A DNA stretch of 64,000 nt from contig CAVEUC010000007.1 of NCBI GenBank assembly GCA_963619035.1, positions 3,127 to 67,126 of the forward strand, given 5' to 3'. The stretch's first letter is position 1. Every line of letters begins with the position of its first letter. Below the pieces are notes generated by a model, which was given only the letters and a program-made list of their open reading frames with translations, was not told where the DNA came from and searched no databases. Source of the DNA: Lachnospiraceae bacterium GAM79. Lineage in GTDB: Bacteria; Bacillota_I; Bacilli_A; RFN20; CAG-826. The position numbers and the translations under genes were made by a program. Below, in pieces: positions 4,134 to 39,480 of the stretch.

Positions 4134-4135
4134 AT

Positions 4136-4822: not shown

Positions 4823-4823
4823 A

Positions 4824-5660: not shown

Positions 5661-5661
5661 T

Positions 5662-6993
5662 ATGAGAAAACCTATTATCGGTATTGTTTGTTTAGTTAGA
5701 AAAACTTTTGATTTTGAAACTGCTTTTAAACTTTATAAAGAAAGAAGTGCAAAAGTAATGGAAGATAATTCTATAGATTGGGTTTATTACCCAACTATGG
5801 TTATTGAACCAGATGAAGCAAAAAAAGCAGGAGAATTTTTTGTTGAAAAGCATGTAGATGCAGTTGTTGTAGTTTCTGCGACTTTCCATCTAGGTGGTTT
5901 AGCTTTAATTTTACACAATATCGTTAAAAAACCATTCTTATTACAAGGTTATAACGAATTACCATACAATGGTGGTAAAATTCGTTTAAATGCTGTTTGT
6001 GGTGTTAATTTAAATGCTTCTAATTTATATAAAGGTGGAGTTGATGATTTTATAGTTTATGTAGGAGATGATATCGATCACGATTGGGTTAAAGCTATAA
6101 AAATGAAAACTGCTTTAGAAAATTCTAATGTTGGATTGATCGGTTTTCATGCTCAAGGATTTTATAATGTTGGAGTAGATGAACTCCATTTATATAAAGA
6201 ATTAGGTATATTAATATCTCATTTTGAATTAAGTGATTTCTTTGGTGGAGAAGCTAAAGAAGAAGAGATTGATAAAGAAGAAAAAGAATTAAGAGAAACA
6301 TTTGATTGTAAAAAATTAAATGATAATCAAGTAAGACAAGTTTCTAGATTAATTGTAGTTGCTGAAAAATTCATGAAAGAAAAAGGGCTTGATGTTGTTG
6401 CGATTCGTTGTTGGCCAGAATTTGCTAAAAATTATGGTGTATCACCTTGTGCGATGATGTCTGTATTACAATCTAGAGGAATTTTATTAGCTTGCGAAGG
6501 CGATATTGAAGCTGCATTAAGCATGGTAGCTGTTAGAGCTGCAGGTGAAGAAACTCCATTTATGGCTGATTTATCACAAGTAAATTACGAAGAAAATTAC
6601 GCTTTATTATGGCATGATGGTGTTGCTCCTTGTAACTTATGGGATCGTAGATGTAATCGTTCATTAGAAACCTATTTTGCTGGAGGAAAAGGTGTCACAG
6701 CTGATTTTGTTTTAAAACCAGGTAAGATGTCTATTTTAAGAATTGATACTGCTAGAGGAAAAACAAGAATCTATTACGAAGAAGGTGAAGCTTTTGAAAT
6801 GAATAAGGATTTATCTGGAACGTATGCTAAAGTTGTTTTTAATAGACCTATTAATGAAGTTATTGATACAGTTACATATACTGGAGTTGCACATCACGTT
6901 ATTATGGGATATGTTCAATATAAAAAAGCAATGCAATATCTTGCTCGATTAATGAATTGGGAGATATTAGATGAAAATACTAAATGTTACTGA
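5662..6993 (+). CDS. L-fucose/L-arabinose isomerase-fold sugar isomerase; sulfoquinovose isomerase (SftI)-like
   Basis: 443 aa. It carries RCWPEF...SPC...LLACEGD, typical of the FucI/AraA-like family. It sits where the isomerase lies in SFT-type clusters. Confidence 0.65.
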   Translation: MRKPIIGIVCLVRKTFDFETAFKLYKERSAKVMEDNSIDWVYYPTMVIEPDEAKKAGEFFVEKHVDAVVVVSATFHLGGLALILHNIVKKPFLLQGYNELPYNGGKIRLNAVCGVNLNASNLYKGGVDDFIVYVGDDIDHDWVKAIKMKTALENSNVGLIGFHAQGFYNVGVDELHLYKELGILISHFELSDFFGGEAKEEEIDKEEKELRETFDCKKLNDNQVRQVSRLIVVAEKFMKEKGLDVVAIRCWPEFAKNYGVSPCAMMSVLQSRGILLACEGDIEAALSMVAVRAAGEETPFMADLSQVNYEENYALLWHDGVAPCNLWDRRCNRSLETYFAGGKGVTADFVLKPGKMSILRIDTARGKTRIYYEEGEAFEMNKDLSGTYAKVVFNRPINEVIDTVTYTGVAHHVIMGYVQYKKAMQYLARLMNWEILDENTKCY

Positions 6994-7585
6994 TAAAGAA
7001 TTTAAAGATTATGGATATGTATTAGATATAGATACTAAAGATATTGTAGATTATTTAAATAACAAATCTAAAATGCCTTTAGAAAACAACATTTATGTTA
7101 GAAATGATTCTAATATGCATACTTTAAATAATATTTCAAATATTAAAGAATATGTTTATGGATTAGGTGATATTGAAGTAGGTTATTGTAATGGATTTAA
7201 TTCACTATTAAATTGTATGGAATATCATACATGTCCTGAAGTTGATATTGCAGCTACTGATTTAGTTTTATTATTAGCAAAACAAGATGATATTCATGGT
7301 GAAATATTAAATTCTAAGGATGTTAAAGCATTCTTGGTTAAAAAAGGTCAAGCGGTAGTATTAAACCCTTATACATTACACTTTTCACCTTGTAAATTAT
7401 CCGAAGATGGATTTAGATGTGCTATCATTTTAACTGATAAAACTAATAGTGATTTAGAAGGCATAATAAACGATAAAAAACTTTGGAAAGTAAATAAATG
7501 GTTATTAGCTCATAAGGATTCTAAACAAGCTTCTTTAGGGGCTTATATTGGAATTGAAGGAGAAAACATTAAGGTAGATTATTAA
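6971..7585 (+). CDS. Small cupin-like protein of unknown function, DUF4867/SftX-like
   Basis: 204 aa. GGGAG RBS 7 nt upstream. It overlaps the isomerase gene by 23 nt. The family assignment is from memory of SFT cluster composition, not from a search. Confidence 0.5.
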   Translation: MKILNVTDKEFKDYGYVLDIDTKDIVDYLNNKSKMPLENNIYVRNDSNMHTLNNISNIKEYVYGLGDIEVGYCNGFNSLLNCMEYHTCPEVDIAATDLVLLLAKQDDIHGEILNSKDVKAFLVKKGQAVVLNPYTLHFSPCKLSEDGFRCAIILTDKTNSDLEGIINDKKLWKVNKWLLAHKDSKQASLGAYIGIEGENIKVDY

Positions 7586-7587
7586 TT

Positions 7588-8304
7588 ATGCTATATGATG
7601 CTTTATTTATTTTAATAATATTTTTAAGCAACATTATACAAACTATTACCGGATTTGCTGGAACAGCATTAGCGATGCCTTTATCTTTAAGATTAGAAGG
7701 AGCTGAAACTGCAAAACCGGTTTTAAATTTAGTTGCTCTTTTAGTGTGTGTTTATGTTGTCGTAGTCCATTTTAAAGATATTGATTGGAAAAATTTCTTA
7801 ATAATTTTAGGTGTTGTTGGACTAGGGTTTGCAACTGGTTATTTAGTTGATTTAATACCAATCGATGGAAAGATATTATTATATATTTATGGTGGAATAG
7901 TAATAGTAGTAAGCATTCTATTTTTCTTTATTGATTTTGAGAAGATTAAATTGCCGAAATGGGTGATGATAATATTTTTATTTTTAGGTGGAATAATGCA
8001 TAAATTATATGTTTCTGGTGGTCCTTTTGTAGTAATTTATGGGTTAAGAGAATTAAAAGATAAAAATAAGTTTAGAGCAACGTTATCTTTATTATGGATT
8101 ATTTTAAATTCTGTATTATTTACTACTCACATTGTACAGGGATTATTTACGACTCATGTTTGGATTTTATTTGGAATTGGAGCAGGAGCAACGATATTAT
8201 CTTTAGTTATAGGATCTTTAATTGCTCCTAAATTATCAAAAAAACTATTTTTGAAAATTACTTGTGTGCTTTTATTTATTTCAGGTGTTACACTATTTAT
8301 ATGA
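7588..8304 (+). CDS. TauE/SafE-family anion (sulfonate) exporter
   Basis: 238 aa. Polytopic and hydrophobic throughout, with the N-terminal motif ITGFAGTALAMPL. It matches the size and topology of TauE/SafE permeases. Confidence 0.6.
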   Translation: MLYDALFILIIFLSNIIQTITGFAGTALAMPLSLRLEGAETAKPVLNLVALLVCVYVVVVHFKDIDWKNFLIILGVVGLGFATGYLVDLIPIDGKILLYIYGGIVIVVSILFFFIDFEKIKLPKWVMIIFLFLGGIMHKLYVSGGPFVVIYGLRELKDKNKFRATLSLLWIILNSVLFTTHIVQGLFTTHVWILFGIGAGATILSLVIGSLIAPKLSKKLFLKITCVLLFISGVTLFI

Positions 8305-9266
8305 TAAGTTTAACTTCAACTCAGAAAAAAATTATTAGAATTCTTTTTGTAGAAAAAGAAAGTTCACGCTCAATATTAGCAAAAAAGTTAAATTTAACTA
8401 ATGCAGCGTTAACTTTAACTATGAAGCCTTTATTAGAAGAAGGTATTATTTTAGAATCTAAAAAAGATATTCAAAGAGTAGGAAGAAAAGAATTAATAAT
8501 TACTTTAAATTCTAAATATGGATATTTTTTAGGAATAGATATTAGAAAACATCATTTTTATTTTTCTTTGATGAATATATCAGGAGAATTAATTAAATTT
8601 GAAAGTGATAAAAATATAACTTTAAAAGATTTTTATAATGGTTATTTAGATGATATCATCGCAATAGGAATAACTATTAGAGGGAAAGCTGATTTAAGTA
8701 TAATTAAAGAAAAATATCCAGTATTTCACAGTGAAATTGAAAAATTAAATAAACCTTATTATTTATTTAATAATGTTAATTGTTTAGCTGATATTTATTC
8801 TTTGAATTATTATGATGATAAAAATTTCTTGTTAGTTAAATATGGTCCTGGTGTTGGTAGTTCGATTTATGTACATGGTAATCCATTAGGAAGTTCTTCT
8901 GAATTAGGACATATGTACTATCAAAGTAACACAGTTGAAGAATGTATTTCCTATTCATCAATTTTAGGAAAAGAATTGGAAGAAGACGAAGCAAATATAG
9001 AAATATTAAAAGATAATGAAAAACTTAAATATATTTTACATATATTGTCTTTTGCATTAATTAATGCTGATGCTTTATTATCTTTACAAAAAATTATTTT
9101 ATCTGGTGCTTTATTATCTAACGAAACAATAATTAAAGAATTAGAAAAAGAATTGATAAGTTTAAATAGCGACTTCGATATTAATAAACTTTGCTCTTAT
9201 CCAAATTATAACGATACAAATAATAAAAAAGGATCTATAGGAGCCTTTATAAAGTTATTTTCTTAA
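8301..9266 (+). CDS. ROK-family transcriptional regulator (N-terminal winged HTH plus sugar-kinase-like domain)
   Basis: I moved the start to ATG 8301 (ATGA overlap with the upstream stop). The ORF-track TTG start at 8262 is an extension. N-terminal HTH SRSILAKKLNLTNAALTLTMKPLLEEGII; ROK-like core GIDIRKHHFY. The Cys-rich ROK zinc motif is absent. Confidence 0.65.
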   Translation: MISLTSTQKKIIRILFVEKESSRSILAKKLNLTNAALTLTMKPLLEEGIILESKKDIQRVGRKELIITLNSKYGYFLGIDIRKHHFYFSLMNISGELIKFESDKNITLKDFYNGYLDDIIAIGITIRGKADLSIIKEKYPVFHSEIEKLNKPYYLFNNVNCLADIYSLNYYDDKNFLLVKYGPGVGSSIYVHGNPLGSSSELGHMYYQSNTVEECISYSSILGKELEEDEANIEILKDNEKLKYILHILSFALINADALLSLQKIILSGALLSNETIIKELEKELISLNSDFDINKLCSYPNYNDTNNKKGSIGAFIKLFS

Positions 9267-9276
9267 AAACCATATG

Positions 9277-9308
9277 AAAAGCCTACTCAAATTAGAGTAG
9301 GCTTTTTT
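9277..9308. terminator. Bidirectional rho-independent terminator between convergent genes
   Basis: Stem-loop GCCTACTC-AAATTA-GAGTAGGC flanked by A4 upstream and T6 downstream. Confidence 0.85.
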
Positions 9309-9320
9309 GAATTTAGTTAA

Positions 9321-10844
9321 TTATTTAGATTCTGTATCCCCGATAATGATTTCATTATTAGCTGCTTGTTGAGCTAATAAAACTTCTTTTTCTGATTGTA
9401 ATTCTTCAGTTTTATGTTTATTTAATCCATACATAAATAACATTACTAAACCTAATATTAAGAATAAACCAGCAGGAATAGCAGTAGCCATATAATACAT
9501 TAAATTAAGTGTTTCTGCAGATTGAACTGCGCCGTTATAAGATTTGTAGTTAGAACCAAGCAAAGCAGCATTAACAGCAATAGCAGCGACTACTTGACCC
9601 ATCTTTCTAAAAAACATGAAGATAGAATATGATGAACCGTCGTTTCTTAAACCCGTTTTAACTTCAACATCATCGATTGCATCGGTTGCTAATGCCCACA
9701 TTTCTAAGTTGATTATTGATAAACCAATTCCGCTAATTAAACAGAAAATTAAGAATAAGAATGGATATTGAACGATTATATCTTTCATAAAGATTAATAC
9801 GAAGTTAGGTATTGCAGCAACAATTCCTCCAATTGCACAAAGTTCTTTTTTACCAAATTTTCTAACTAATTTTCCAGCGAAGAACATCAACACAACCATA
9901 GGACCGTAAGTGCATGCTTGCGAAGCTAAATTAAGCCAGTTTGCTGCAAATAAATCATTAAATAGATATGTGTAGAAAGATTGAGTGAACATTTGACCAG
10001 CTAACAATAATAAACCAGTTAAACAAACAGCTACAAAGCTTCTATTTTTCATTAAGATTTTAATAATTTTTCTTGTTTCACCTTTTTCGTGTTCTCTAGG
10101 AACTGCGATAACTCTTTCTTTATTAGTTTTATAAGCTACAAATAAAAGAACACATGCAATAACTGCTAAAATTGAAACACCGATGATAATATAAGGATAT
10201 TGAATTTGAGTAAGTTGTTTTCCATTTTCTCCAATAACTGGATTTCCGGCTTCATCAAAGATTTTTTTACCATAAATTGAAGTGATGACTAAAACAGGAA
10301 TTGAACCTAATGCAGAACCAGCAGATCTAAATACTGATAATTTATTTCTTTCTTTTGCGTCTGTTGTAACAACACTAGCTAAAGAACCGTATGGAATTTG
10401 ATGCATTGTATAAATCATACCAAATGCAATATAAGTAACTGTTGCGTATATACAAATTCCAACAGTTCCAATCTTTTCAGCAAATCCAGACCAAGGTAAG
10501 AACATCAATATTGTTGAAACAGCTAATGGTATTGCAACCCATTTCATCCAAACTCTGTATCTTCCTTCTTTCTTTGGCCTTTTTAAATCTACGATTCTTC
10601 CCATGATAGGATCGTTTATTGCGTCCCATACACGAGCGACAATAAACATAATCATAATAAATAAAGGACTAATTCCTAAAATATCGGTGTAATATTTTTG
10701 AAGGAGAGTCATAACGCTAGAAAAGCATAAGCATCCAGCAAAATCACCTAAAGCGTAACCGATATAGTCCTTACTTTTTAAACCTGAAGTTTGAGATATG
10801 TAAGATCTTGCGCCTTCAGCAGTGTTTTTATTTTCATTTTCCAT
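9321..10844 (-). CDS. MFS glycoside-pentoside-hexuronide (GPH):cation symporter, YihO-like candidate sulfoquinovose/SQ-glyceride importer
   Basis: 507 aa, about 12 TM. GPH signature ARVWDAINDPIMGRIVD in the first cytoplasmic loop. Confidence 0.75.
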   Translation of the reverse strand: MENENKNTAEGARSYISQTSGLKSKDYIGYALGDFAGCLCFSSVMTLLQKYYTDILGISPLFIMIMFIVARVWDAINDPIMGRIVDLKRPKKEGRYRVWMKWVAIPLAVSTILMFLPWSGFAEKIGTVGICIYATVTYIAFGMIYTMHQIPYGSLASVVTTDAKERNKLSVFRSAGSALGSIPVLVITSIYGKKIFDEAGNPVIGENGKQLTQIQYPYIIIGVSILAVIACVLLFVAYKTNKERVIAVPREHEKGETRKIIKILMKNRSFVAVCLTGLLLLAGQMFTQSFYTYLFNDLFAANWLNLASQACTYGPMVVLMFFAGKLVRKFGKKELCAIGGIVAAIPNFVLIFMKDIIVQYPFLFLIFCLISGIGLSIINLEMWALATDAIDDVEVKTGLRNDGSSYSIFMFFRKMGQVVAAIAVNAALLGSNYKSYNGAVQSAETLNLMYYMATAIPAGLFLILGLVMLFMYGLNKHKTEELQSEKEVLLAQQAANNEIIIGDTESK

Positions 10845-23643: not shown

Positions 23644-25914
23644 TTAAAGAATATGTTTAATAAAATGACCGTGTGTATCGGTGATGTTATCAAAACATTT
23701 AGTAGATAATTCACCATTAAGTTTTAAATTAACTTGTTTTATTATATTTAAAATTTCTTCATTAGATTCATCAGTAAAAATTAATCTTAAATAATTGATA
23801 TGATTCAAATCATCAATTAAATCGATATTGTTTAATGTTTTAGAATTTAAAACTTTAATAGTGCAATCATCATTAAAAATTAAAGGAAAGCTTTCATATC
23901 TATCCTTTAATGAATATTTATTAATTTTACATTGTCCACACATATTTAATCTTTTTAAAGGACAATATTTTGAGTGCATTAAAGTTATTTTTCCATAAAT
24001 TATAACTTCCAAATTTGGATAAAAATTATATTCAGAATAAAAATTATTAACTAACTTATTGATGTGATCTTTATTAATTTCTAATGATAATGTGATTCTT
24101 TTAACACCTAAAGAAGATAAAAGAGCAACATTTTTATAATTGGTAACATTAAAAGAGTAATCAGATACTATATTGATGTTTTTATTTTTATAACATTCTA
24201 ATCCACCATATCCTCCAACTAAAACAGAGTTTGTGTTTAAATCGTTATATTTTTCGTTGTTTCTTCTAACTATATTTTTATAATAAATATTTTTATAACC
24301 TAATTCAGTAAGTAAATCATATTGTTTTTGAGTGTTAACTTCAAAAACAAGCTCTGTATTTGTAGTGTTAATATTATTATTTATAGGAATTATTTCATCT
24401 ATTTCTTTATTATAAATAACATCTCTTTTTAATCTAATTTTATTTAATTCTTCAATTGCTTTACGTCTAACTTCATTTATTTCTTTTAATGGTATAAAAA
24501 GATTATTTTCACAATCGATATTATAATTTTCAATATAATAAGGAGTGTCGTTTAATTTATTAAGTTGTGTTTTAACATTATCAATTGTGGTAGAAGAAGA
24601 AATCGCTTTTTCAATCTTAATAGTTCCTGAAGAAAAAGCTTTATAGTTTTTATATTCTACTTTTAAAAATAAAACTCTATTTTCTTTTGCTACAAACTCA
24701 ACATTAATAGGTAATTTTTTATATTCTTTAATTAATAAATTTTGTTTTATTTCATTTAAATATTTAATATCTTTTGTTTTATATACTTTTGCACCTAACT
24801 TAACTTTTTCATCTAAATAAATAATAGCCATCTTATTATTTGTTTGAGAAATATTAAAATTAGCATCGAACATTTTTGTAATAGGTACGCTTATTTCTTT
24901 AAAAATATCTTCAGATTCAATACGAATTTGATCACCTTTATTTAATTCTTTAAATAATCTAATCCATACTTTATTTTTATTTATTTTAGCTATTTCACCA
25001 ATTAAATACCCGTAATTATTAGGTCTTTCTATATTTGTAATATTGTTAACTAATTCGTGATTAATATATCCTTTTGTATAAGTTCTATTAAAAACTTTAT
25101 CTAAGTTTGATACATTGACTTTTTCATTATCTACTAATTTTCTATATGTAGAAGTTACACTTGAAACATAACTTGGCTCTTTCATTCTGCCTTCAATTTT
25201 AAAAGAATCGATAAAGAGCATATTTTTTAAATAATCAGCAGTATTTAAATCTTTCATAGAAAGGAGATAACCTTTTTTAATTTCGGAATTGTTTGTTTCA
25301 TCAATCAATGTATAAATTTGTCTACAACATCCTGCGCACCTTCCTCTATTTCCGCTACGATCTCCAATCATTGAAGACATTAAACAATTTCCTGAATAAG
25401 AGACACATAAAGCACCATGAATAAAAGTTTCTATTTCGATATTTAATTTGTTTTTAACTTCTTTTAAAGTTTCTAAAGAAGTTTCCCTAGCAAAAACAAC
25501 TCTTTTTACATTTAAATCTTTTAAAAGTTTAGCACCATAATAGTCATCGATTCCCATTTGAGTTGAAGCATGAGCTTCTATAGATTTATATTTAGTAGCA
25601 ATATAATTTAATAAAGTTAAATCTTGAACAATAATAGCATCCACTCCGATTTCAGCTAATTTATCAACTGTTTTATAAGCTTCTTCTAATTCTTCATCAA
25701 AAAGAATTGTGTTCATTGTTACATAAATTTTAACATTTCTAAGATGAGCATAATCTACATATTCTTTTAAATTATCTAAAGAAAAATTCTTTGCATATGC
25801 TCTAGCACTAAATTTATCTAATCCTAAATAGATTGCATTAGCTCCGCTAGATATTGCTGCATAGAAAGATTCTTTATCTCCACTAGGAGAGAGTACTTCG
25901 TTTTTAATTTTCAT
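23644..25914 (-). CDS. U32-family protein, long form (RlhA/YdcP-like candidate Fe-S RNA hydroxylase; historically annotated as a collagenase-like peptidase)
   Basis: 756 aa. U32 signature ETFIHGALCVSYSGNCLMS. Cys pattern C-x6-C-x15-C-x3-C (CVSYSGNC ... CAGCC). It has a long C-terminal extension containing a second Cys cluster, CPLKRLNMCGQC. Confidence 0.75.
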   Translation of the reverse strand: MKIKNEVLSPSGDKESFYAAISSGANAIYLGLDKFSARAYAKNFSLDNLKEYVDYAHLRNVKIYVTMNTILFDEELEEAYKTVDKLAEIGVDAIIVQDLTLLNYIATKYKSIEAHASTQMGIDDYYGAKLLKDLNVKRVVFARETSLETLKEVKNKLNIEIETFIHGALCVSYSGNCLMSSMIGDRSGNRGRCAGCCRQIYTLIDETNNSEIKKGYLLSMKDLNTADYLKNMLFIDSFKIEGRMKEPSYVSSVTSTYRKLVDNEKVNVSNLDKVFNRTYTKGYINHELVNNITNIERPNNYGYLIGEIAKINKNKVWIRLFKELNKGDQIRIESEDIFKEISVPITKMFDANFNISQTNNKMAIIYLDEKVKLGAKVYKTKDIKYLNEIKQNLLIKEYKKLPINVEFVAKENRVLFLKVEYKNYKAFSSGTIKIEKAISSSTTIDNVKTQLNKLNDTPYYIENYNIDCENNLFIPLKEINEVRRKAIEELNKIRLKRDVIYNKEIDEIIPINNNINTTNTELVFEVNTQKQYDLLTELGYKNIYYKNIVRRNNEKYNDLNTNSVLVGGYGGLECYKNKNINIVSDYSFNVTNYKNVALLSSLGVKRITLSLEINKDHINKLVNNFYSEYNFYPNLEVIIYGKITLMHSKYCPLKRLNMCGQCKINKYSLKDRYESFPLIFNDDCTIKVLNSKTLNNIDLIDDLNHINYLRLIFTDESNEEILNIIKQVNLKLNGELSTKCFDNITDTHGHFIKHIL

Positions 25915-25921
25915 GTTTAAT

Positions 25922-25930
25922 ATTCTAACA
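25922..25930 (-). promoter_or_regulatory. Extended -10 element directly upstream of the 756-aa U32 gene (possible leaderless transcript)
   Basis: The minus strand reads TGTTAGAAT, then 7 nt (ATTAAAC), then ATG. There is no purine-rich RBS in between. Confidence 0.4.
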
Positions 25931-25990
25931 TTTTTTAAGTATAAAAATTAATAACTTTAAACTTAACTTATTTTAAAGTAAAATTTAATC

Positions 25991-27211
25991 ATGAAAAAAA
26001 TAGAATTACTTGCTCCTGTAGGAGATAAAGAAAGATTAGAAGCAGCAGTGCATTTTGGAGCAGATGCAGTTTATTTTGGTGGTAAAAAATTTGGATTAAG
26101 AGCTTTTGCTTCTAATTTTGAAGAATTGCAAATTAAAGATGCAGTTGAATATTGTCATGCTAGAGATGTTAAAGTGTATGTAACTGTAAATATTTTAGCT
26201 CATAACGAAGATTTTGAAGGGATGGTCGATTATTTAAAATCTTTGGATGAAATAGGAGTTGATGGCGTTATTGTTAGTGATTTAGGTATTGCTAGTTTAG
26301 TTAAAAAATACACCAATTTAGAATTGCATGTTTCTACTCAAGCAAATGTTACAAATATTTATTCGGCTAAAGTTTGGGTTGAATTAGGTGCTAAAAGACT
26401 TGTTTTAGCAAGAGAATTAAATATTGATGAAATTAAACAAATTAAAGAATATGTGGGAAATGATATAGATATTGAATGTTTTTGTCATGGAGCAATGTGT
26501 ATTTCTTATAGTGGAAGATGTTTGCTTTCAAATTATTTTTTAGGAAGAGATTCTAATAGAGGACAGTGTGCTCAACCATGTAGATGGAAATATTCTATTC
26601 AACCATTAAATGATCAAAATAATGATTTAGTTGATAAGTATCCTATAGAAGAAGATAGTAGAGGGACATATATTTTAAATAGTAAAGATATGTGTTTAAT
26701 AGAACATGTTAAAGAGTTATCTGAAGCTGGTATCAACAGTTTTAAAGTTGAAGGCAGAATGAAATCAACTTATTATGTTGCAACAGTAATTAACGCATAT
26801 AGAAGAGCAATTGATAATTATTTAAATAATAAAGAAAAAGATTTTGATTATATAGAAGAATTGAAAAAAACTTCTAATAGATCTTTTACAACTGGTTTTT
26901 ATTTTAATTCAGATCAAAAAACTAATAAGGAATCCGCTTTATTAGAACAAACTTATGATTTTGTAGCTTTAGTTTTAGAAGATAGTAAAGATGGAAAAGT
27001 TTTAGTTGAATTAAGAAATAAATTTTCTGTTGGAGATGAATTAGAAATACTATCTAATACTGATAGTTTCAACAAGACTATTAAAGTTGATGTTATTGAA
27101 GATGAAGCAGGAAATCATATAGATATTGCAAGAAAAGTGAAACAAAGATTATATTTAAATACAGATTTTGAATTAAAAAAATTTGATATTTTAAGAAAAA
27201 AGAAGTTCTAA
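25991..27211 (+). CDS. U32-family protein, TrhP/YegQ/YrrO-like candidate prephenate-dependent tRNA U34 hydroxylase
   Basis: 406 aa. U32 signature ECFCHGAMCISYSGRCLLS. Cys pattern C-x6-C-x15-C-x3-C (CISYSGRC ... CAQPC). Confidence 0.75.
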   Translation: MKKIELLAPVGDKERLEAAVHFGADAVYFGGKKFGLRAFASNFEELQIKDAVEYCHARDVKVYVTVNILAHNEDFEGMVDYLKSLDEIGVDGVIVSDLGIASLVKKYTNLELHVSTQANVTNIYSAKVWVELGAKRLVLARELNIDEIKQIKEYVGNDIDIECFCHGAMCISYSGRCLLSNYFLGRDSNRGQCAQPCRWKYSIQPLNDQNNDLVDKYPIEEDSRGTYILNSKDMCLIEHVKELSEAGINSFKVEGRMKSTYYVATVINAYRRAIDNYLNNKEKDFDYIEELKKTSNRSFTTGFYFNSDQKTNKESALLEQTYDFVALVLEDSKDGKVLVELRNKFSVGDELEILSNTDSFNKTIKVDVIEDEAGNHIDIARKVKQRLYLNTDFELKKFDILRKKKF

Positions 27212-27212
27212 G

Positions 27213-28664
27213 ATGAAATTAAAAGACAACAAGATTTATAGGTGGATTATAATCCCAATTTGTATTGCTATGTGCTTTTTTGGAAGGTTCATCCCTTCAA
27301 ATGGCGTGTTAACTAGCGATGCAATGGGTGTTATTTTTATATTTGTTGGATCTTTAATTTTATGGCTAACAATAGGAATTGATTGGCCAAGTTTAGTCTG
27401 CATATTTGCTTTAGGCACATTGAATACATATAAATTTAGTGATGTATTTCAACTTAGTTTTGGAAATTCTACATTTATTTTTCTTTTGTTCACATTTGTT
27501 TGTACTTACGCATTAAGTCAAACTTCCTTAATTAAAAAAATAGCAATTTCTTTTATTAATTCTAAATTAGCTAAAAAAAGTGGATTTTTATTTATATCTT
27601 TGTTTTTAACAAGTGTATTACTTCTAGGGTTATTTATTTCTCCTTCAGTTTTATTTGTCATTATATTGCCTATTTTAAATAAAATATTTGAAATCGCCCA
27701 TTTAAATAAAGGTGATAAAGTAGCTAAAATTATGATGATTGGTTTAGGATTTACTGTCTCAATTAGTAGTGGAATGACTCCAATTGGTCACGTATTTCCT
27801 ATATTAGCAATAAGTGCTGCTAAGATAGATGTTTCTAGTATTGCTTATATGGGTATAGCTATTCCAACGGGTATTGCTATATTTTTATTGATGCTTTTGA
27901 TGTTCAAAATTTATTTAAAAAAAGAAGCAGATTGCATTAAAGGAGTTGATGTATCGTCTTTAAAAAATGAGTGTGAGAAGATAAATAAAAGAGATATTAT
28001 TGTTTTAATTATTTTTATTATTGTTATTTTGTTATGGATTTTACCTTCTATATTTAAAGATGTATCGATAGATTTCTATAATTTCATCAATCAATATGGT
28101 ACTGCAATGCCACCTTTATTAGGAACTATTTTATTATGCATTATTAGAGTTGATGATAAACCTTTAATCAAAATTGATGAAGCTTTTAAAAAAGGAATTC
28201 CTTGGGGGAGTTTACTTATGTGCGCAGCAACTTTAGTATTAGGTAGTGCTTTAACAAATGATAGTATAGGTATTAAATCAGTATTATCTAATGCTTTAAG
28301 CGGATCATTAAGTAATTTACCTGTATTTGTTTTATTAATAATATTTGTAACGTGGGCTGCGATTCAAACGAATTTATCGTCTAACATGGTTACAGCAACT
28401 TTAGTTGCAACTGTTGCAGAATCAATTTTATTAACTATTTCAACATTAGCAGTAAACCAAAATTATACTATAATTTGTTTGATAGGATTGATGGCTAGTT
28501 TAGCTTTTGCTACACCTCCTTCAATGCCTCATATAGCAATAGTAGCAGGAAGCGAATATTGCGATACGAAAAGTGTATTGATATTTGGTTCTATATTAAT
28601 GGTTATTTCAATTATTTGTGCTATTATAATAGGCTATCCACTAGGTTTATTGATATTTAATTAG
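27213..28664 (+). CDS. Ion-transporter superfamily permease, DASS/SLC13-like di-/tricarboxylate or anion symporter
   Basis: 483 aa. Polytopic with two-fold internal organisation and a hairpin-like LSSNMVTAT segment in the second half. It starts 1 nt after the U32 stop. Confidence 0.55.
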   Translation: MKLKDNKIYRWIIIPICIAMCFFGRFIPSNGVLTSDAMGVIFIFVGSLILWLTIGIDWPSLVCIFALGTLNTYKFSDVFQLSFGNSTFIFLLFTFVCTYALSQTSLIKKIAISFINSKLAKKSGFLFISLFLTSVLLLGLFISPSVLFVIILPILNKIFEIAHLNKGDKVAKIMMIGLGFTVSISSGMTPIGHVFPILAISAAKIDVSSIAYMGIAIPTGIAIFLLMLLMFKIYLKKEADCIKGVDVSSLKNECEKINKRDIIVLIIFIIVILLWILPSIFKDVSIDFYNFINQYGTAMPPLLGTILLCIIRVDDKPLIKIDEAFKKGIPWGSLLMCAATLVLGSALTNDSIGIKSVLSNALSGSLSNLPVFVLLIIFVTWAAIQTNLSSNMVTATLVATVAESILLTISTLAVNQNYTIICLIGLMASLAFATPPSMPHIAIVAGSEYCDTKSVLIFGSILMVISIICAIIIGYPLGLLIFN

Positions 28665-28674
28665 AGGTATAAAT

Positions 28675-28947
28675 ATGACTGAATTAGAATTATTAAGAAA
28701 AGAAATTGATGAAATAGACTCTGAAATTATTAAATTATATGAAAAGAGAATGGATGTTGTTAAATCTGTTATTAAATATAAAGTAGAAAATAATATTCCA
28801 GTTTTAGATAAAAGTAGAGAAGGTAGTATGTTAGAAAAAAATCTTAAAATGATTGAGAATGAAGATTATAAAAAGTATTATCTAGATGTTTTAAACGGTT
28901 ATTTAAAAGCTAGTAAAGATATGCAAAATGATTTATTAATAAAATAA
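28675..28947 (+). CDS. Stand-alone AroQ-class chorismate mutase
   Basis: 90 aa, sequence ELELLRKEIDEIDSEIIKLYEKRMDVVKSVIKYK...DKSRE...KDMQ. By eye, it retains the residues aligning to the E. coli CM active-site positions Arg11, Arg28, Lys39, Arg51/Glu52 and Gln88. Confidence 0.75.
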   Translation: MTELELLRKEIDEIDSEIIKLYEKRMDVVKSVIKYKVENNIPVLDKSREGSMLEKNLKMIENEDYKKYYLDVLNGYLKASKDMQNDLLIK

Positions 28948-28951
28948 TTAT

Positions 28952-30691
28952 ATGGAAGAAGAAATTTTAAAAAATATAAATAGTTATGAAGATTTTAAAA
29001 AGTTAGATATTTCTAAACTTCCTTTTTTATGTAAAGAAATTAATAAAGTTATTATTAATAAATGTAGTGAAACTGGTGGACATCTCGCTAGTAATTTAGG
29101 TGTCAATGAGCTCATTGTCGCACTTGATTATGTATTTAATTTAGATGAAGATAAATTGATATTTGATGTATCTCATCAAACTTATACTCATAAAATAATC
29201 ACAGGAAGAAAAGAAAAGTTTTTAGATACAAAAACATATGGAAATAGTGCCTCTTTTTCTAATTATAAAGAATCAAAATATGATTTATTTACTTTAGGTC
29301 ACACATCAAGTTCAATAAGCTTAGGATATGGAATGGCTAAAGCTAGAGATTTAAAAAAAGAAAAATACAATATTATTTCTTTAATAGGCGATGGGTCTTT
29401 AAGTGGGGGAGAAGCTTTTGAAGGATTGAATAACGCTTCTACTTTAAAATCTAATTTTATTATTGTTATTAATGATAATGATATGTCTATTGCTGATGAT
29501 GTAGGATTTTTATATAAAAATTTATATGATTTAAAGTTAAATAAAGGAGAATCAAAACATAATATATTTAAAGATTTTGGATATGAATATAAATATATTG
29601 AAGAAGGAAATGATGTTATTAAATTAATTGAAGAATTTAATAAAATAAAAGATATAAATAAACCAATAGTTGTTCATGTACATACATTAAAAGGTAATGG
29701 ATATAATTACGCTATTGAAAATAAAGAACAATGGCATTATAGAGCTCCATTTAATATTATTGATGGAAAATTAAAAAAAGAGATGGGAAATACGTATGAA
29801 ATTATAAACCATGATTATTTTTGTAATCTTTTAGATAATAGAAAAGATGTTATTTTAGTTACTGCTGGAACTCCTAAAAATTTTGGTTTTTCTAAAAATG
29901 ATAGAGAGAAATATAAAGATAATTTTGTGGATGTTGGAATTGCTGAACAAAGTGCAATTTCATTATCTTTAGGTATAAGTAAAAATAGGATTAAACCAAT
30001 AGTAAATATTAGTAGTAATTTCTTGCAAAGAGGATTTGATCAAATCGCTCATGAAATTTCATTAAATAGTCCAGATATTACTTTTTTAGTTGGATATGGA
30101 GGCTATCAAAAAGCTAGTTGTACTCATCAAAATGTATTAGATATTTTAATGATTTCTAATATACCAAATATCAATTATTATGCCCCATGTTATAAAGAAG
30201 AATATTTATATTTATTAGATTATTCTTTAAAAAATGGTGGTACTAATTTTATAAGAGTTCCTAATGGTTTAGCTTTATCTAAAAATATTAAAATAAAAGA
30301 TGTTAATAAATATGATTATTTAATTAAAGAAGATAGTGTTGCCTTAATTGGAATAGGAAAAACTAAGGAAAAAGCATTTATATTACATGATTTATTAAAA
30401 GAAAAGAATATAAATTCAAGCGTAATTAACGTATTAAATATTTCAAATGTAGATATAGATTTCATTAATAATCTTACTAAAAAACATCAATTAATTATTG
30501 TAATTGAAGATGGAATGAAAGAAGGTGGATTTGGAGAAAAACTAGTAAGTTTTGCTAAAAATATCACCGTATTTAATTATGGTTTAAATAAAAAATATTA
30601 TGATTTTGTAGATGAAAATGACGCTTATAAAGATAGCGGAATGGATAATGAATCTATATTAAATGATATTTTAAAATTTTTTCAAAACTGA
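28952..30691 (+). CDS. DXS-like ThDP-dependent enzyme (1-deoxy-D-xylulose-5-phosphate synthase family, atypical)
   Basis: 579 aa. Motifs GGHLASNLG, ThDP/Mg motif GDGSLSGGEAFEGLNN...NDND, VGIAEQSA and CTHQN. See the findings for substitutions at the expected GAP-binding arginines. Confidence 0.7.
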   Translation: MEEEILKNINSYEDFKKLDISKLPFLCKEINKVIINKCSETGGHLASNLGVNELIVALDYVFNLDEDKLIFDVSHQTYTHKIITGRKEKFLDTKTYGNSASFSNYKESKYDLFTLGHTSSSISLGYGMAKARDLKKEKYNIISLIGDGSLSGGEAFEGLNNASTLKSNFIIVINDNDMSIADDVGFLYKNLYDLKLNKGESKHNIFKDFGYEYKYIEEGNDVIKLIEEFNKIKDINKPIVVHVHTLKGNGYNYAIENKEQWHYRAPFNIIDGKLKKEMGNTYEIINHDYFCNLLDNRKDVILVTAGTPKNFGFSKNDREKYKDNFVDVGIAEQSAISLSLGISKNRIKPIVNISSNFLQRGFDQIAHEISLNSPDITFLVGYGGYQKASCTHQNVLDILMISNIPNINYYAPCYKEEYLYLLDYSLKNGGTNFIRVPNGLALSKNIKIKDVNKYDYLIKEDSVALIGIGKTKEKAFILHDLLKEKNINSSVINVLNISNVDIDFINNLTKKHQLIIVIEDGMKEGGFGEKLVSFAKNITVFNYGLNKKYYDFVDENDAYKDSGMDNESILNDILKFFQN

Positions 30692-32233
30692 TTTAAAATC
30701 TTTATCAAAAGAATAAACTACATCTTCATCTTTTTTATGATCGTCATACCAAATTTGAGCGTAAATCTTATCTTTTTTTGCTAATCTATCAAAATCCCAA
30801 ACGATTTCACTATATGATTTATTGTACCAATGTCCTCCTTTTAAGATTGTAAAAGGAGTGGATTTAAATTTAATACCATCTTGATTTTCCCATTCTAAAA
30901 GAGAATAAACATCACCTTTATTAAATTCTTTTGTTAATAACTTTCCACCATGAGCATTAGCAACATTAATCAAATCATCGATATCGATATCTTTTAAATT
31001 TTTATTATCATCATAAAAATAATTTAGTTTATATTTTTCAGGATTATTTTGCATTTCTTTTAAAGAAATTTTTTCACCTTCAAAACCTTTATCTTCATTC
31101 AGTAAATTAAAATTATTCCAATCAGTACCTAATGAATCATAAAATTCTTTTGAATAGAATGTTGCCTTAATTCTTGCTTCATCATTTATTTTTACCCATT
31201 TAGTAGGAGCATTATTATCTTTTAATAAAGGTTTAATAACTAATCCACCGATCATTTTTTTAGGTAAATGAGCTGCGATTTTAAAATAAAAATGACTATC
31301 ACCTATAGCTTTAAAATAATCTTCGTAATTATCATTTATATAATGAAACATATTATCTAATTCTAATGAATCACTAAACCAACAACCATGGAAATTTCTA
31401 ATAGCATTATAGTTAGGTTTAAAGAAATCTTTAGTAGATCCTCCGATTAATTTAAATCCAATATCTAATGTTTTATAACCAGTAATTTGATTCTTTGATC
31501 CGCCACCTAAATTAAAAATATGCTTCCAAAAATTATCTTCATTTAATTTTCCATCTATATCATCTTTAATTATATTTGCAATTAATAAACCACTATCTTC
31601 AGCACTAGCCCATTCTAAAAAAGTATTAAAAGGGGTGTGAAACATAAGTCCATCAGAAACATTTTGCATCATTAATTCTTTATAAATCATCGCTGTTTGT
31701 CTAATTACAGTCCATGTTTTTATTGAAGAATCTAAAACTTCTTTTTCTCCTCTAGCTTTTGTTAAAGCATAAATATCTAGAGGTGAAAAAAGTAAAGGAT
31801 CACCTACTTTGACAAATGGATGTTTATAAGTTCTATTTCCATATAAAGCAACAGTAGAAATATGTATTAATTTTGGTTGATTCCCTTTAATATCTTCAAT
31901 GCATTTAACAAGATTTTTAACACCTAAATAATTACAATCGTATGCTTTTTGAGGATATTTATCTGAAGCAGGAGGTATAACAGCTGCCATATTGATAACG
32001 TAATCAACATCTTTAATTAGTTCTTTTATTGCTTTTTCATCTTGCAATAATCCATGAATAAAGATAATTCTATCCATGTCATTTTTTACAATTCTTTTAA
32101 TTGTTTTAAATTTTTTGTTATTGTGAGGGATTAAAAGTTTAATTTTATCGATTTCTTTAATCTCTAAAATTTTCTTTAAAACTTGTTTTCCCATATTACC
32201 GGTTGAACCAGTTATTGCTATATTTCGTTTCAT
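30671..32233 (-). CDS. Extended SDR (NAD-dependent epimerase/dehydratase family) with an uncharacterised C-terminal domain
   Basis: 520 aa. Rossmann motif ITGSTGNMG, catalytic YALTK (YxxxK), and an extra C-terminal region of about 120 aa. Its 3' end overlaps the convergent DXS-like gene by 21 nt. Confidence 0.65.
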   Translation of the reverse strand: MKRNIAITGSTGNMGKQVLKKILEIKEIDKIKLLIPHNNKKFKTIKRIVKNDMDRIIFIHGLLQDEKAIKELIKDVDYVINMAAVIPPASDKYPQKAYDCNYLGVKNLVKCIEDIKGNQPKLIHISTVALYGNRTYKHPFVKVGDPLLFSPLDIYALTKARGEKEVLDSSIKTWTVIRQTAMIYKELMMQNVSDGLMFHTPFNTFLEWASAEDSGLLIANIIKDDIDGKLNEDNFWKHIFNLGGGSKNQITGYKTLDIGFKLIGGSTKDFFKPNYNAIRNFHGCWFSDSLELDNMFHYINDNYEDYFKAIGDSHFYFKIAAHLPKKMIGGLVIKPLLKDNNAPTKWVKINDEARIKATFYSKEFYDSLGTDWNNFNLLNEDKGFEGEKISLKEMQNNPEKYKLNYFYDDNKNLKDIDIDDLINVANAHGGKLLTKEFNKGDVYSLLEWENQDGIKFKSTPFTILKGGHWYNKSYSEIVWDFDRLAKKDKIYAQIWYDDHKKDEDVVYSFDKDFKSVLKKF

Positions 32234-32334
32234 ATGTATAGATTTTAAACCTTAAATGTAAAAAAATGAAATATTATTTTTTCTTAAACTTATTAAATAT
32301 GTTAATATTTATTTATGAGGGAGGATTTTTTATT

Positions 32335-33516
32335 ATGAAAAAATCTACAATTGTAATGTTTGTTATTACAGCTATATTATTTGTGCTAGGAATAGGCGCA
32401 TCTTATTATGGAATTTATTCTACTTTTACGAAAGATACTATCTCTACAGTATTAGACATGATTAAAGCAATTCCAGTCGTTAGAAATGTTGATATTGGAT
32501 TAGCAGGATTTACATTTGTTTTATTTTTAGCTCACTTAATTGTAAGTTTAGTTGATAAAAAGAAAGTTAATTTAAGTATAAGCTTTGTAAGTTTAGTTTT
32601 AGGATCTTGCGCATCAATTTCAACAGCAATAGGATGTTATAGAGCTATTAATATAATTAATAAAAGTGAAGCATTTGAAAATAGTATTTCTAATTATTTA
32701 ATATTAGGTGGAACTTTAATTTCAATTCTTGCTTATTTATTCATGTTAATCACTGTGATTATTTCTTTAAAAGGTAAAAAAGTTGAAGAAAAAGTAGTAG
32801 CAGTTGAAACTAGTGAAGTTGAAGAAAATAAAGCAGAAGAACATCAAGTAGAAGAACCTGATGAAGTAAAAGAAGAACCTGTTTCTGTAGCAGAATCTAA
32901 AGAAGAAGCACCTGTTGAAACTAAAGAAGATGTAAAAGAAGAATCTGTTGAAGAACAAAAAGAAGAAGTTGTTACTCCAATAGAAACCAAAGAAGAAAAA
33001 CCAGTTGAAGAAACTCCAGTAACAGAAGAACAAAAAAATGTTACAGAAAATGACGTTGTTGATTCTAAAAAAGAAGAAAATGTTGTAAAATTAGAAGATA
33101 AAGAAGAAAAAGCAGAAGAAAAACCTGCTAAAAAAGCAAATAATAAAAAAGGAGCAAAGAAAACCATGGCAACAGAAAAGAAAGAAACAAAGAAAGTAGC
33201 AGAAAAAGAAACTAAAACTGCTGAAAAGAAACCAGCAGCTAAAAAAGCTGCAACTACTACAAAAGTAGCAGAAAAACCAGCAGCTAAAAAAGAAGCTGCA
33301 GATAAGAAAGCACCTTCAAAGGCATATCATCTTTCAAAAAGAGAAGAAGATGGTAAATGGGCTATTAAATTAGCAAAAGGTGAAAAGGTTATTAAACTTT
33401 TCAATACTAAAGCAGAAGCTTTAGAATATGCTAATAAATTATCTGATAATCAAGATGCAACTTTAAGAGTTCACGCTTCAAAAGGAAAATCAAAAGGTAA
33501 AATCCAAAAACAATAG
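32335..33516 (+). CDS. Membrane protein with an acidic E/K/V-rich linker, a basic AKK-rich tail and a C-terminal DUF2188-like domain
   Basis: I moved the start to ATG 32335 (GAGGGAGG RBS). The ORF-track start at 32266 lacks an RBS. About four N-terminal TMs. The C-terminus YHLSKREEDGKWAIKLAKGEKVIKLFNTKAEALEYANKL...LRVH fits the DUF2188 pattern. Confidence 0.7.
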   Translation: MKKSTIVMFVITAILFVLGIGASYYGIYSTFTKDTISTVLDMIKAIPVVRNVDIGLAGFTFVLFLAHLIVSLVDKKKVNLSISFVSLVLGSCASISTAIGCYRAINIINKSEAFENSISNYLILGGTLISILAYLFMLITVIISLKGKKVEEKVVAVETSEVEENKAEEHQVEEPDEVKEEPVSVAESKEEAPVETKEDVKEESVEEQKEEVVTPIETKEEKPVEETPVTEEQKNVTENDVVDSKKEENVVKLEDKEEKAEEKPAKKANNKKGAKKTMATEKKETKKVAEKETKTAEKKPAAKKAATTTKVAEKPAAKKEAADKKAPSKAYHLSKREEDGKWAIKLAKGEKVIKLFNTKAEALEYANKLSDNQDATLRVHASKGKSKGKIQKQ

Positions 33517-33940: not shown

Positions 33941-35236
33941 ATGAAAAAAAGAAGAATTTTTCCTATATTATTAACTGCATTAGCATTATTCTCTTGTAGT
34001 CCAGATAATGGTGGAAATAACAATAACAATAATGATAATAATCAAAATAATAATAATAATAATAATGGTGATAACAACAATAATGACCAAACAAGTTATG
34101 ATGAAAATGCAACTCATGATGGAACAGTATCTTCACCATTAAGTTGTAAAGAAGCTTCAACATTAGCATCAGCTTTATCTTCTAGTGATTCAATTACAAA
34201 ATATGTTTATGGAGTTGTTACTTCATTTCATAAAGATGGTATTAGTCCATCTTTCGGAAACGCAACTTTCTATATGAAATCTGCAGATACTGAATTATTA
34301 GTTTGGAGATGCAAATATTATAATAGTGAAAAATTTACTACAGGAAGTGAATTTAAAGTTGGAGATAAAATTGTATTAAATGCAACTTTAATAAATTATC
34401 AAGGAAATACGCCTGAAGCTGATGTAAATTCTTATATTTATTCAATTAATGGTGTTACTAAGGGTAGTGATTCTGGTAATAATAATGATAGTGGTGATAA
34501 CAACAATAACAATAATAACAACAATGGTACAGATAGTAGTGAAAAATTCCCTGTTACAGATGATATAAATAAGTATTATGAATTAGTTACAGATGATTTA
34601 ACTGGTGGAATGAATGGAACTTTAAGAACTACTTTAACTAAAATTTCTAAACCTAAAGCTTCTTATGAATATAGCAGTGGCTTAGCTGGATTATTACCTG
34701 ATAGTAATGAAGATCCTAATAATAGTTCTAATATGATTTATTTTTATACTCATAAAAGTGTAAAGAAGAACGCAGCATCAACTTGGAATAGAGAACATAC
34801 TTGGCCTCAATCTTTATCAGGTGGTTTATATGGTAAGTCTGGTGGAGGTTGTGATGCTTTACACATTATGCCAACTTATAACAAAACTAATACCACAAGA
34901 GGCAATTTAAAATTTGGATATTGTAGTAATGGAACTGTTCAAACATATGAAGGCGTTCAATACGCTAAAACATCTGGTGGCTATTTTGAACCAATGGACA
35001 GTGTAAAAGGGGATTGTGCAAGAATTGTATTCTATATGTGGACAACATATTTCGCTTCAAGAAATCATTCGATTACTAACGTAGCTCAAAGTATTCAAAC
35101 GATGATAGAACGGAACAAATTAGATCCAGTTGACGATTTAGAAAGAATGAGAAATAAAGTTGTATTTGCTAGCAAACAAAATAATAGAAATCCATTTGTC
35201 GATCATCCTGAATGGGTTGAAAAAATCTTCGGATAA
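33941..35236 (+). CDS. Surface lipoprotein nuclease, endonuclease I (EndA/NucM) family with poly-Asn linkers
   Basis: 431 aa. Lipobox ALFS-C. Endonuclease-I motifs NREHTWPQS, DALHIMPTYNKTNTTRGN and NRNPFVDHPEW. Two Asn/Asp/Gly-rich low-complexity linkers. Confidence 0.8.
   Translation: MKKRRIFPILLTALALFSCSPDNGGNNNNNNDNNQNNNNNNNGDNNNNDQTSYDENATHDGTVSSPLSCKEASTLASALSSSDSITKYVYGVVTSFHKDGISPSFGNATFYMKSADTELLVWRCKYYNSEKFTTGSEFKVGDKIVLNATLINYQGNTPEADVNSYIYSINGVTKGSDSGNNNDSGDNNNNNNNNNGTDSSEKFPVTDDINKYYELVTDDLTGGMNGTLRTTLTKISKPKASYEYSSGLAGLLPDSNEDPNNSSNMIYFYTHKSVKKNAASTWNREHTWPQSLSGGLYGKSGGGCDALHIMPTYNKTNTTRGNLKFGYCSNGTVQTYEGVQYAKTSGGYFEPMDSVKGDCARIVFYMWTTYFASRNHSITNVAQSIQTMIERNKLDPVDDLERMRNKVVFASKQNNRNPFVDHPEWVEKIFG
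34046..34066 (+). repeat. Perfect (AAT)7 trinucleotide microsatellite inside the nuclease gene
   Basis: Seven consecutive AAT codons encoding Asn7. A second imperfect AAC/AAT tract lies at about 34497-34527. Confidence 0.9.
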
Positions 35237-39321: not shown

Positions 39322-39396
39322 GGGCGCTTAGCTCAGTGGGAGAGCGCTTCCTTCACACGGAAGAGGTCATAAGTCCGATCCTTATAGCGCCCACCA
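39322..39396 (+). tRNA. tRNA-Val (anticodon CAC), atypical T-loop
   Basis: 75 nt including CCA. Acceptor GGGCGCT/AGCGCCC, anticodon loop TTCACAC. T-arm ATAAG-TCCGATC-CTTAT, so position 55 is C. Confidence 0.8.
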
Positions 39397-39404: not shown

Positions 39405-39480
39405 GCCTTCTTAGCTCAATTGGCAGAGCAACTGATTTGTAATCAGTAGGTTGTTGGTTCGATTCCGATAGAAGGCACCA
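39405..39480 (+). tRNA. tRNA-Thr (anticodon TGT)
   Basis: 76 nt including CCA. Acceptor GCCTTCT/AGAAGGC, anticodon loop TTTGTAA, T-loop TTCGATT. Confidence 0.9.

Follow-up and report, generated by a model that had tools for sequence, protein, structure and literature searches.

A U32 protein, a permease and a chorismate mutase in one conserved operon of gut Bacilli: a candidate prephenate-supply module for RNA hydroxylation

Prephenate-dependent hydroxylation by U32 proteins is a recently recognised, O2-independent chemistry, the direct biochemistry of which is yet to be demonstrated (PMC10990095, PMC11574389). For two members of the family that act on RNA, TrhP and RlhA, the requirement for prephenate has been shown genetically (PMC6599085, PMC5727448), while for UbiU/V prephenate is the oxygen donor and phenylpyruvate the proposed by-product (PMC10990095). 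Escherichia coli and Bacillus subtilis obtain prephenate from their own shikimate pathway, and their TrhP genes are linked neither to a chorismate mutase gene nor to a transporter gene. Here we describe a locus in which a TrhP-like U32 gene stands in an operon with both, namely a permease gene and the gene for a 90-aa chorismate mutase. The locus lies in a 64-kb stretch of DNA (hereafter the window, to which all coordinates refer unless a related locus is named; G+C ~26%) on contig CAVEUC010000007.1 of assembly GCA_963619035.1, which is deposited as Lachnospiraceae bacterium GAM79 and placed by GTDB in the order RFN20 (CAG-826).

Several described systems come close to this locus. The UbiU/UbiV/UbiT system has in common with it the U32 Fe-S chemistry and the proposed role of prephenate as hydroxyl donor, which yields phenylpyruvate (PMC10990095). 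Nevertheless, that system has a lipid substrate, a heterodimeric enzyme and a lipid-binding accessory protein, whereas no quinone pathway is evident here and the U32 proteins of the window score much lower against the UbiU/V models. In the yrrMNO operon of B. subtilis, TrhP2 (YrrN) and TrmR (yrrM) are encoded alongside TrhP1 (YrrO), whereas no TrhP2- or TrmR-like gene adjoins the TrhP-like gene of the window. An earlier reading of the window, made from its letters alone (hereafter the sequence-only reading), was not aware of any described linkage of U32 hydroxylases with the supply of their cosubstrate. The literature that we could search likewise contained no linkage of a U32 gene to a chorismate mutase or transporter gene, and no bacterial importer of chorismate or prephenate. 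The component families and the prephenate chemistry of U32 proteins are already known; what appears to be new is a dedicated prephenate-supply module, together with the transporter specificity that it implies.

Organisation and conservation of the operon

The locus comprises five genes. The gene for a 756-aa RlhA-like U32 protein (Peptidase_U32 and DUF3656 domains) occupies positions 23644-25914 on the minus strand. An AT-rich spacer of 76 nt (25915-25990) separates it from four genes on the plus strand, which encode, in this order, a 406-aa TrhP-like U32 protein (25991-27211; Peptidase_U32 and Peptidase_U32_C domains), a 483-aa permease of the DASS/CitMHS type (27213-28664), a 90-aa AroQ chorismate mutase (28675-28947) and a 579-aa DXS (28952-30691). 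The plus-strand genes are separated by 1 nt (U32 to permease), 10 nt (permease to mutase) and 4 nt (mutase to DXS), and no terminator-like site was found on the plus strand within this string. All of these features, that is the five open reading frames (ORFs), the divergent U32 pair, the gaps and the lack of a terminator, had been noted in the sequence-only reading and are reproduced in our analysis. The spacer carries weak promoter-like matches on both strands and is presumed to be the shared promoter region of the two U32 genes. An Rfam scan matched tRNAs alone, with no family match in the spacer and neither a riboswitch nor a leader ahead of the operon. Every ORF of 110 aa or more in the window was scanned with Pfam, which revealed no aro, phe, tyr, trp or cmo gene and, besides dxs, no gene of the methylerythritol phosphate (MEP) pathway. 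The window's Pfam content comprises glycolysis, NAD salvage, sugar utilisation, ABC transporters and surface proteins, and the earlier remark that the mutase has no other aromatic-amino-acid gene in sight therefore holds across the entire 64 kb.

We compared the locus with 104 related loci, of which 6 were obtained by exact-protein look-up, 18 from species-representative genomes and 80 from metagenome contigs, the last group being gathered with permease alignments reaching down to 37% identity. Neighbourhoods were scored by tblastn and by profile hidden Markov models built from orthologs. Permeases clustered at 95% identity were counted as one lineage, and an upper clade was defined on the permease tree. 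This clade holds 29 lineages, with permeases 54-100% identical to that of the window and a locus GC of 0.21-0.47; the loci from genome collections include Candidatus Onthovivens, Clostridium sp. CAG:288, and uncultured Mollicutes and Bacilli. The chorismate mutase gene lies directly downstream of the permease gene in all lineages that could be assessed (27/27), and a TrhP-like U32 gene lies directly upstream of the permease gene in 22 of 26. The RlhA-like gene is the divergent neighbour in 13/20 assessable lineages, and DXS is found downstream in 3/19. The spacing is tight across relatives, ranging from -20 to +9 nt between the U32 and permease genes and from about 2 to 17 nt between the permease and mutase genes. 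The genes found after the mutase belong to 22 unrelated clusters and differ in identity, distance and strand, and the flanks of the U32-permease-mutase core are otherwise unrelated between genomes. As the genes that follow the mutase are unrelated between genomes, the conserved unit ends at the chorismate mutase.

The recurrence of the trio is far beyond chance, because the order is kept in every related locus with room for it while the flanks are unrelated. We regard the trio as very probably a functional unit. Synteny in relatives, on which the sequence-only reading had made its proposal depend, is therefore strong for the three core genes. That reading had presented the two U32 genes as a pair wired into the module; the 406-aa gene indeed belongs to the core, whereas the 756-aa gene proved to be an optional neighbour.

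The permease and mutase genes also stay together where the TrhP-like gene is missing. Four lineages of the upper clade (L040/L051, L045/L048, L107 and L041) carry the two genes with no adjacent TrhP-like gene, and in L041 the pair directly abuts an RlhA-like gene, with no TrhP-like gene between. Beyond the upper clade, among permeases 37-47% identical to that of the window, three subclades have a Pfam-confirmed CM_2 gene beside the permease gene, each in its own arrangement: directly downstream (L064, L068, L095), divergent (L102, L103), or 2.3 kb upstream (L057, L059, L104). The deepest linkage is thus between the permease and the mutase, not between the U32 protein and the mutase. Since a chorismate mutase gene is present in one or two copies per genome and yet lies repeatedly, and in various ways, beside this transporter family, the transporter is tied to the substrate or the product of the mutase.

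A recurrent fourth gene after the mutase, for instance an FAD-dependent oxidoreductase acting as the missing oxidant, was considered and rejected on account of the unrelated clusters found at that position. The FAD protein that follows the mutase in L003 is of a different family from the PF12831 protein encoded beside distant permeases. A terminator-like hairpin follows the mutase gene in one (L010) of the three loci without DXS that we looked at.

The proteins of the module

The 406-aa protein matches Peptidase_U32 (PF01136, 313.5 bits) and Peptidase_U32_C (PF16325, 69 bits), and thereby has the domain architecture of E. coli TrhP (YegQ) and B. subtilis TrhP1. Its top-scoring NCBIfam model is that of TrhP (346.5 bits, against 175.8 bits for the UbiU model). 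In BLASTP comparisons with the four E. coli K-12 U32 paralogs (TrhP, RlhA, UbiU and UbiV), which served as references for both U32 proteins, TrhP was the closest (244 bits, 34% identity over the full length), followed by RlhA (184 bits), UbiU (146 bits) and UbiV (31 bits). The four-cysteine Fe-S motif shared with the TrhP proteins, CX6CX15CX3C, spans residues 170-197 and is invariant in 21 orthologs. The protein is only 34% identical to E. coli TrhP and stays under the equivalog cut-off of the TrhP model, and we therefore call it TrhP-like rather than a TrhP equivalog. Judged by its domains and motif, the first gene of the conserved trio encodes a candidate prephenate-dependent tRNA U34 hydroxylase; its dependence on prephenate is presumed to be like that of TrhP (PMC6599085). 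Among the tRNAs of the window are two with U34 that serve four-codon boxes, tRNA-Leu(UAG) at 1886-1969 and tRNA-Thr(UGU) at 39405-39480. As tRNAs of this kind bear xo5U in other bacteria, both are plausible substrates of the TrhP-like enzyme. A gene for tRNA-Val(CAC) is also present (39322-39396). Matches to solved structures were limited to the C-terminal domain of one U32 protein, and the 756-aa protein had none.

The 756-aa protein matches PF01136 in two stretches (276.5 bits) and DUF3656 (PF12392, 81.8 bits), and its residues 571-651, a second and C-terminal U32-like stretch, match the UbiV model. Its closest E. coli paralog is RlhA (239 bits, 32% identity over 514 aa), followed by TrhP (139 bits) and UbiU (137 bits). 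The combination of U32 and DUF3656 is exclusive to RlhA, and about half of the RlhA1 members carry a second, C-terminal U32 motif (PMC5727448). The architecture of the 756-aa protein thus matches the RlhA1 subfamily, to which E. coli RlhA (YdcP), the 23S rRNA ho5C2501 synthase, belongs. The four-cysteine motif again lies at residues 170-197 and is invariant in orthologs, so that the C-x6-C-x15-C-x3-C pattern and the U32 assignments given in the sequence-only reading stand for both proteins. The 756-aa protein is accordingly a candidate 23S rRNA C2501 hydroxylase by domain composition. It differs from E. coli RlhA in its linkage, since its gene often, though not always, lies divergently beside the trio.

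The last gene of the trio encodes a monofunctional AroQ chorismate mutase, which by its sequence would convert chorismate to prephenate. The protein passes the cut-offs of both PF01817 CM_2 (67.3 bits; cut-off 27) and TIGR01805 (81.8 bits; cut-off 71.2). The catalytic residues appear to be intact, as (i) the equivalents of R11, R28, K39, D48, R51 and E52 of the E. coli enzyme are invariant in 21 orthologs, and (ii) the S-x3-Q pair corresponding to S84 and Q88 is likewise invariant, albeit shifted by one column in the automatic alignment, in which the other six align directly. Fold family and catalytic residues are common to this protein, the monofunctional AroQ mutases of Gram-positive bacteria (TIGR01805) and the mutase domain of E. 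coli PheA. Unlike those enzymes, the 90-aa mutase is unlinked to aro, phe or tyr genes, is always paired with a transporter, and belongs to hosts that mostly lack the pathway to its substrate.

The permease, encoded by the middle gene, scores above the Pfam cut-offs for both CitMHS (72.3 bits) and Na_sulph_symp (67.1 bits) and below the cut-off of TIGR00785 (99.4 bits; cut-off 198.6). It matches VcINDY distantly (E = 3e-12), and by sequence it appears to share the superfamily and overall topology of DASS (2.A.47) transporters such as VcINDY and of CitMHS carriers. The two SNT hairpin motifs that bind Na+ and carboxylate in VcINDY are absent in the permease; SPS and SNM stand in their place in the alignment, and the clade retains both replacements. 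Owing to this replacement, the specificity of the permease is not deducible from its characterised relatives, and in the literature searched we found no characterised homolog, whether of the DASS or of the CitMHS type, with specificity for chorismate or prephenate. With the position of its gene in the trio in mind, we consider the permease a candidate importer of chorismate or prephenate. Relatives at 59-99% identity number in the hundreds in gut metagenomes. COG0471 has a frequency of 0 in RFN20 genomes (PMC7301438 supplement), and the permease is therefore evidently placed in another COG.

Some permeases of the family differ in size or in setting. Those of two loci of the upper clade, L105 (locus positions 1189-2994) and L107 (5947-7833), are about 600-630 aa long, with a mid-protein insertion of about 140 residues that contains extra hydrophobic segments; in L107 the mutase gene is still directly downstream. 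Distant permeases occur in two recurrent neighbourhoods. Permeases of about 43% identity (Type A; L071-L091 and L099; locus GC ~0.39) directly follow the S12-S7-EF-G-EF-Tu genes and are themselves followed by genes for a lipoprotein, a small membrane protein, a GH2-like protein, Hsp33 and a DusB-like protein, with no mutase gene nearby. Permeases of 40-45% identity (most of Type B; L053, L057, L059, L069, L070, L093, L097, L100, L104 and L106) lie in a cassette in which a LysR gene is divergent from genes for a PF12831 FAD-dependent oxidoreductase, the permease and a DUF6198 membrane protein. Neither neighbourhood points to a known permease substrate.

Prephenate supply and alternative explanations

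For the metabolism of the hosts we relied on a survey of 840 Tenericutes-related genomes, which lists gene frequencies per lineage and covers 21 RFN20 genomes (PMC7301438); the RFN20 column of its supplement 2 (gut lineage 2) was recognised by its header and by percentages that the text quotes. The RFN20 frequencies are 0 for aroB, aroD and aroK, 0.05 for 5-enolpyruvylshikimate-3-phosphate synthase (aroA), 0.19 for chorismate synthase (aroC), 0.05 for tyrA2, and 0 for the KEGG Orthology (KO) entries pheA and pheA2 (PMC7301438 supplement 2). The survey describes bacteria of the RFN20 type as living on peptides and amino acids that they import (PMC7301438), and its genomes include a metagenome-assembled one that carries the full arrangement (UQXJ01, locus L011). 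The hosts of the trio are gut Bacilli with reduced genomes (RFN20-like and Mollicutes-related), a group in which the shikimate pathway is mostly missing. At the level of the order, the frequencies indirectly support the sequence-only reading, which had predicted this pathway to be absent or incomplete. U32 proteins (COG0826) are far more widespread, with a frequency of 0.52 in RFN20 and of 98% in RF39 (99 genomes), against about 0-24% for aro genes; in RF39 the shikimate genes are found in about 8-14% of genomes and the KOs for chorismate mutase in about 4% (PMC7301438 supplement 2). If prephenate is needed by U32 enzymes, these figures do not account for its source in RF39, although the low mutase figure may also reflect poor KO assignment for very short proteins. 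Scavenging of chorismate would suggest a way for bacteria without a shikimate pathway to run U32 chemistry.

We propose the following chain of events. The permease would take up chorismate, and possibly also prephenate, released by other gut microbes, and the mutase would turn chorismate into prephenate. The Fe-S U32 enzymes would then use prephenate as hydroxyl donor, with release of phenylpyruvate and CO2, the TrhP-like enzyme producing ho5U34 in tRNA and the RlhA-like enzyme, where present, ho5C2501 in 23S rRNA. Chorismate is favoured over prephenate as the imported compound because the mutase would otherwise be superfluous. The parts of this proposal differ in strength. That the mutase serves the U32 enzyme is probable, whereas the whole chain, from import through conversion to RNA hydroxylation, is a reading that we favour with some reserve; the sequences show the gene identities, the intact motifs, the tight packing and the conserved linkage, while the transported substrate, the direction of transport and the RNA targets are inferred. 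It is attractive to speculate further that with this permease clade a bacterial importer of chorismate or prephenate comes to light for the first time, and that chorismate is a cofactor precursor cross-fed like a vitamin, which shikimate-less gut bacteria scavenge solely to make the oxygen donor for anaerobic RNA hydroxylation, but this extension is tentative and falls slightly short of being the likelier outcome.

A U32 hydroxylase and a prephenate-making enzyme in one operon amount to strong guilt-by-association for prephenate as the true cosubstrate, which is especially telling in hosts with no other evident use for prephenate. If the proposal is true, the operon provides independent comparative-genomic evidence for the direct use of prephenate by U32 enzymes, and a compact three-gene system for reconstituting U32 chemistry. 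It also nominates the permease for a specificity without precedent in the literature searched. The gene set is small and portable, and the proposal is so far purely genomic and concerns uncultured organisms.

Several points weigh against the proposed chain. Direct enzymatic use of prephenate by any U32 enzyme is unproven in vitro (PMC11574389). The 406-aa protein misses the NCBI equivalog cut-off for TrhP (346.5 versus 534 bits), and no TrhP2 (YrrN-like) partner, TrmR or CmoA/B gene is found near its gene. The hairpins with which the permease would bind its substrate are unlike those of characterised DASS members, and many lower-clade permeases (37-47% identity) have no chorismate mutase gene within 6 kb. 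Prephenate dehydratase, when counted by COG (COG0077), has a frequency of 0.29 in RFN20 (PMC7301438 supplement 2), and about a quarter of the RFN20 genomes have some aro genes (PMC7301438 supplement). For the window's own genome and for the other genomes with the trio, the absence of the shikimate pathway is a presumption based on the order-level frequencies.

Among the alternatives, the one that survives best accepts that the trio is real and that the mutase feeds the U32 enzyme, and differs in the role of the permease, which would export or exchange phenylpyruvate, or import another dicarboxylate, such as fumarate as electron acceptor for the two-electron oxidation step. C4 dicarboxylates, citrate or sulfate are the usual substrates of the DASS family, some members of which work as exchangers. 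The match of the permease to VcINDY fits such a role, as do its many relatives of 37-47% identity that are not beside a mutase gene, and the oxidant of U32 hydroxylation is not established (PMC10990095). Nevertheless, without import of chorismate the mutase of a shikimate-deficient host would have no source of substrate and would be useless. The persistence of the permease-mutase pair in lineages with no adjacent U32 gene, and its recurrence in distant subclades, further link the permease to the mutase and not to the redox needs of the hydroxylase. We thus hold this alternative to be unlikely, although it is the least unlikely of those considered.

Somewhat less probable is a salvage of aromatic amino acids, in which scavenged chorismate or prephenate would yield phenylpyruvate or 4-hydroxyphenylpyruvate for transamination to Phe or Tyr, with the U32 enzyme drawing on the same pool. 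Chorismate mutase is normally an enzyme of the Phe/Tyr pathway. In none of the 29 lineages, however, does the pair have a linked gene for a prephenate dehydratase, a prephenate dehydrogenase or an aminotransferase. COG0077 is present in 29% of RFN20 genomes, as such a salvage would have it, but the KO frequencies for pheA, pheA2 and tyrA2 in the same order are zero or close to it, and the bacteria are described as relying on imported peptides and amino acids (PMC7301438). Pairs without an adjacent U32 gene are compatible with salvage; in 22 of 26 lineages, however, the gene immediately before the permease gene is that of the U32 hydroxylase, and the stop codon of the one often overlaps the start codon of the other.

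We give still less weight to the idea that the 406-aa protein hydroxylates an imported small aromatic molecule instead of tRNA, with prephenate made by the mutase from endogenous chorismate. UbiU/V do act on small molecules, namely ubiquinone precursors (PMC10990095), most of the 12 U32 subfamilies are uncharacterised (PMC5727448), and the position of the 406-aa protein under the TrhP equivalog cut-off leaves room for another substrate. On the other hand, the protein has a TrhP-type C-terminal domain, and TrhP is both its best model and its best paralog. Endogenous chorismate is unlikely in RFN20, and the permease remains with the mutase even where no U32 gene is adjacent.

The last alternative concerns DXS, which the sequence-only reading had described as a DXS-like enzyme wired into the module. 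Over its full length the protein passes the NCBI cut-offs for true DXS, both NF008968 (647.6 bits; cut-off 510) and NF003933 (534.5 bits; cut-off 395), and it scores below that of TIGR00204 (414 bits; cut-off 465.95). As its start lies 4 nt past the mutase gene with no terminator between, the gene is probably co-transcribed with the trio in the window lineage. The three lineages that have it downstream of the mutase (the window, L007 and L009) are close relatives. In RFN20, dxs and dxr are common (0.67 and 0.57; PMC7301438 supplement 2), and the MEP pathway is largely complete in representative genomes (PMC7301438). DXS is therefore most simply read as an ordinary housekeeping enzyme of the MEP pathway, the gene of which came to lie behind the operon in this genus-level lineage alone, and the earlier description does not hold. 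Prephenate and phenylpyruvate are 2-oxo acids, and a thiamine diphosphate enzyme acting on their side chain, suggested by the close packing and by retention of the arrangement in L007 and L009, would make DXS a functional member; this is very improbable and largely refuted by lack of conservation, as DXS is missing downstream of the mutase in 16 of 19 assessable lineages, and the clean DXS scores and the frequency of dxs and dxr in RFN20 also argue against it as part of the module.

A gene for a 520-aa protein (30671-32233, minus strand) converges on DXS, the coding ends overlapping by 21 nt. It has an N-terminal NAD-dependent epimerase/dehydratase domain (short-chain dehydrogenase/reductase, SDR) and about 330 C-terminal residues without a Pfam match. 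DXS together with this convergent SDR gene is confined to the window, L007 and L009.

Other features of the window and of a related locus

In one genome (L005/L006, locus positions 3519-8462), the trio adjoins a ThsA-like (Thoeris) Macro-domain gene, DUF4417 and DUF7674 genes and an integrase-core fragment. This suggests a variable island, of defence or mobile character, upstream of the operon in that genome.

Positions 2154-10844 of the window carry genes for a GH31 glycosidase, a TAL_FSA transaldolase, an NAD_binding_2 reductase, a DUF4867 protein, a TauE exporter and a ROK protein, together with a 443-aa protein with a weak Fucose_iso_C match and a divergently encoded MFS_2 sugar transporter. 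The region looks like, and may be, a sulfoquinovose degradation locus of the sulfo-transaldolase (sulfo-TAL) type. Between 12279 and 23523, on the minus strand, proteins of 1310 and 992 aa with Listeria-Bacteroides repeats and BspA-type leucine-rich repeats are encoded beside fused ABC ATPase-permeases of 742 and 686 aa, and the region may be a surface-protein and export cluster. On the plus strand, a 416-aa protein (32266-33516) combines membrane segments at its N terminus with a long low-complexity region rich in Lys and Glu and a DUF2188 domain at its C terminus, and a 431-aa predicted lipoprotein (33941-35236) carries an Endonuclease I domain with long poly-Asn linkers.

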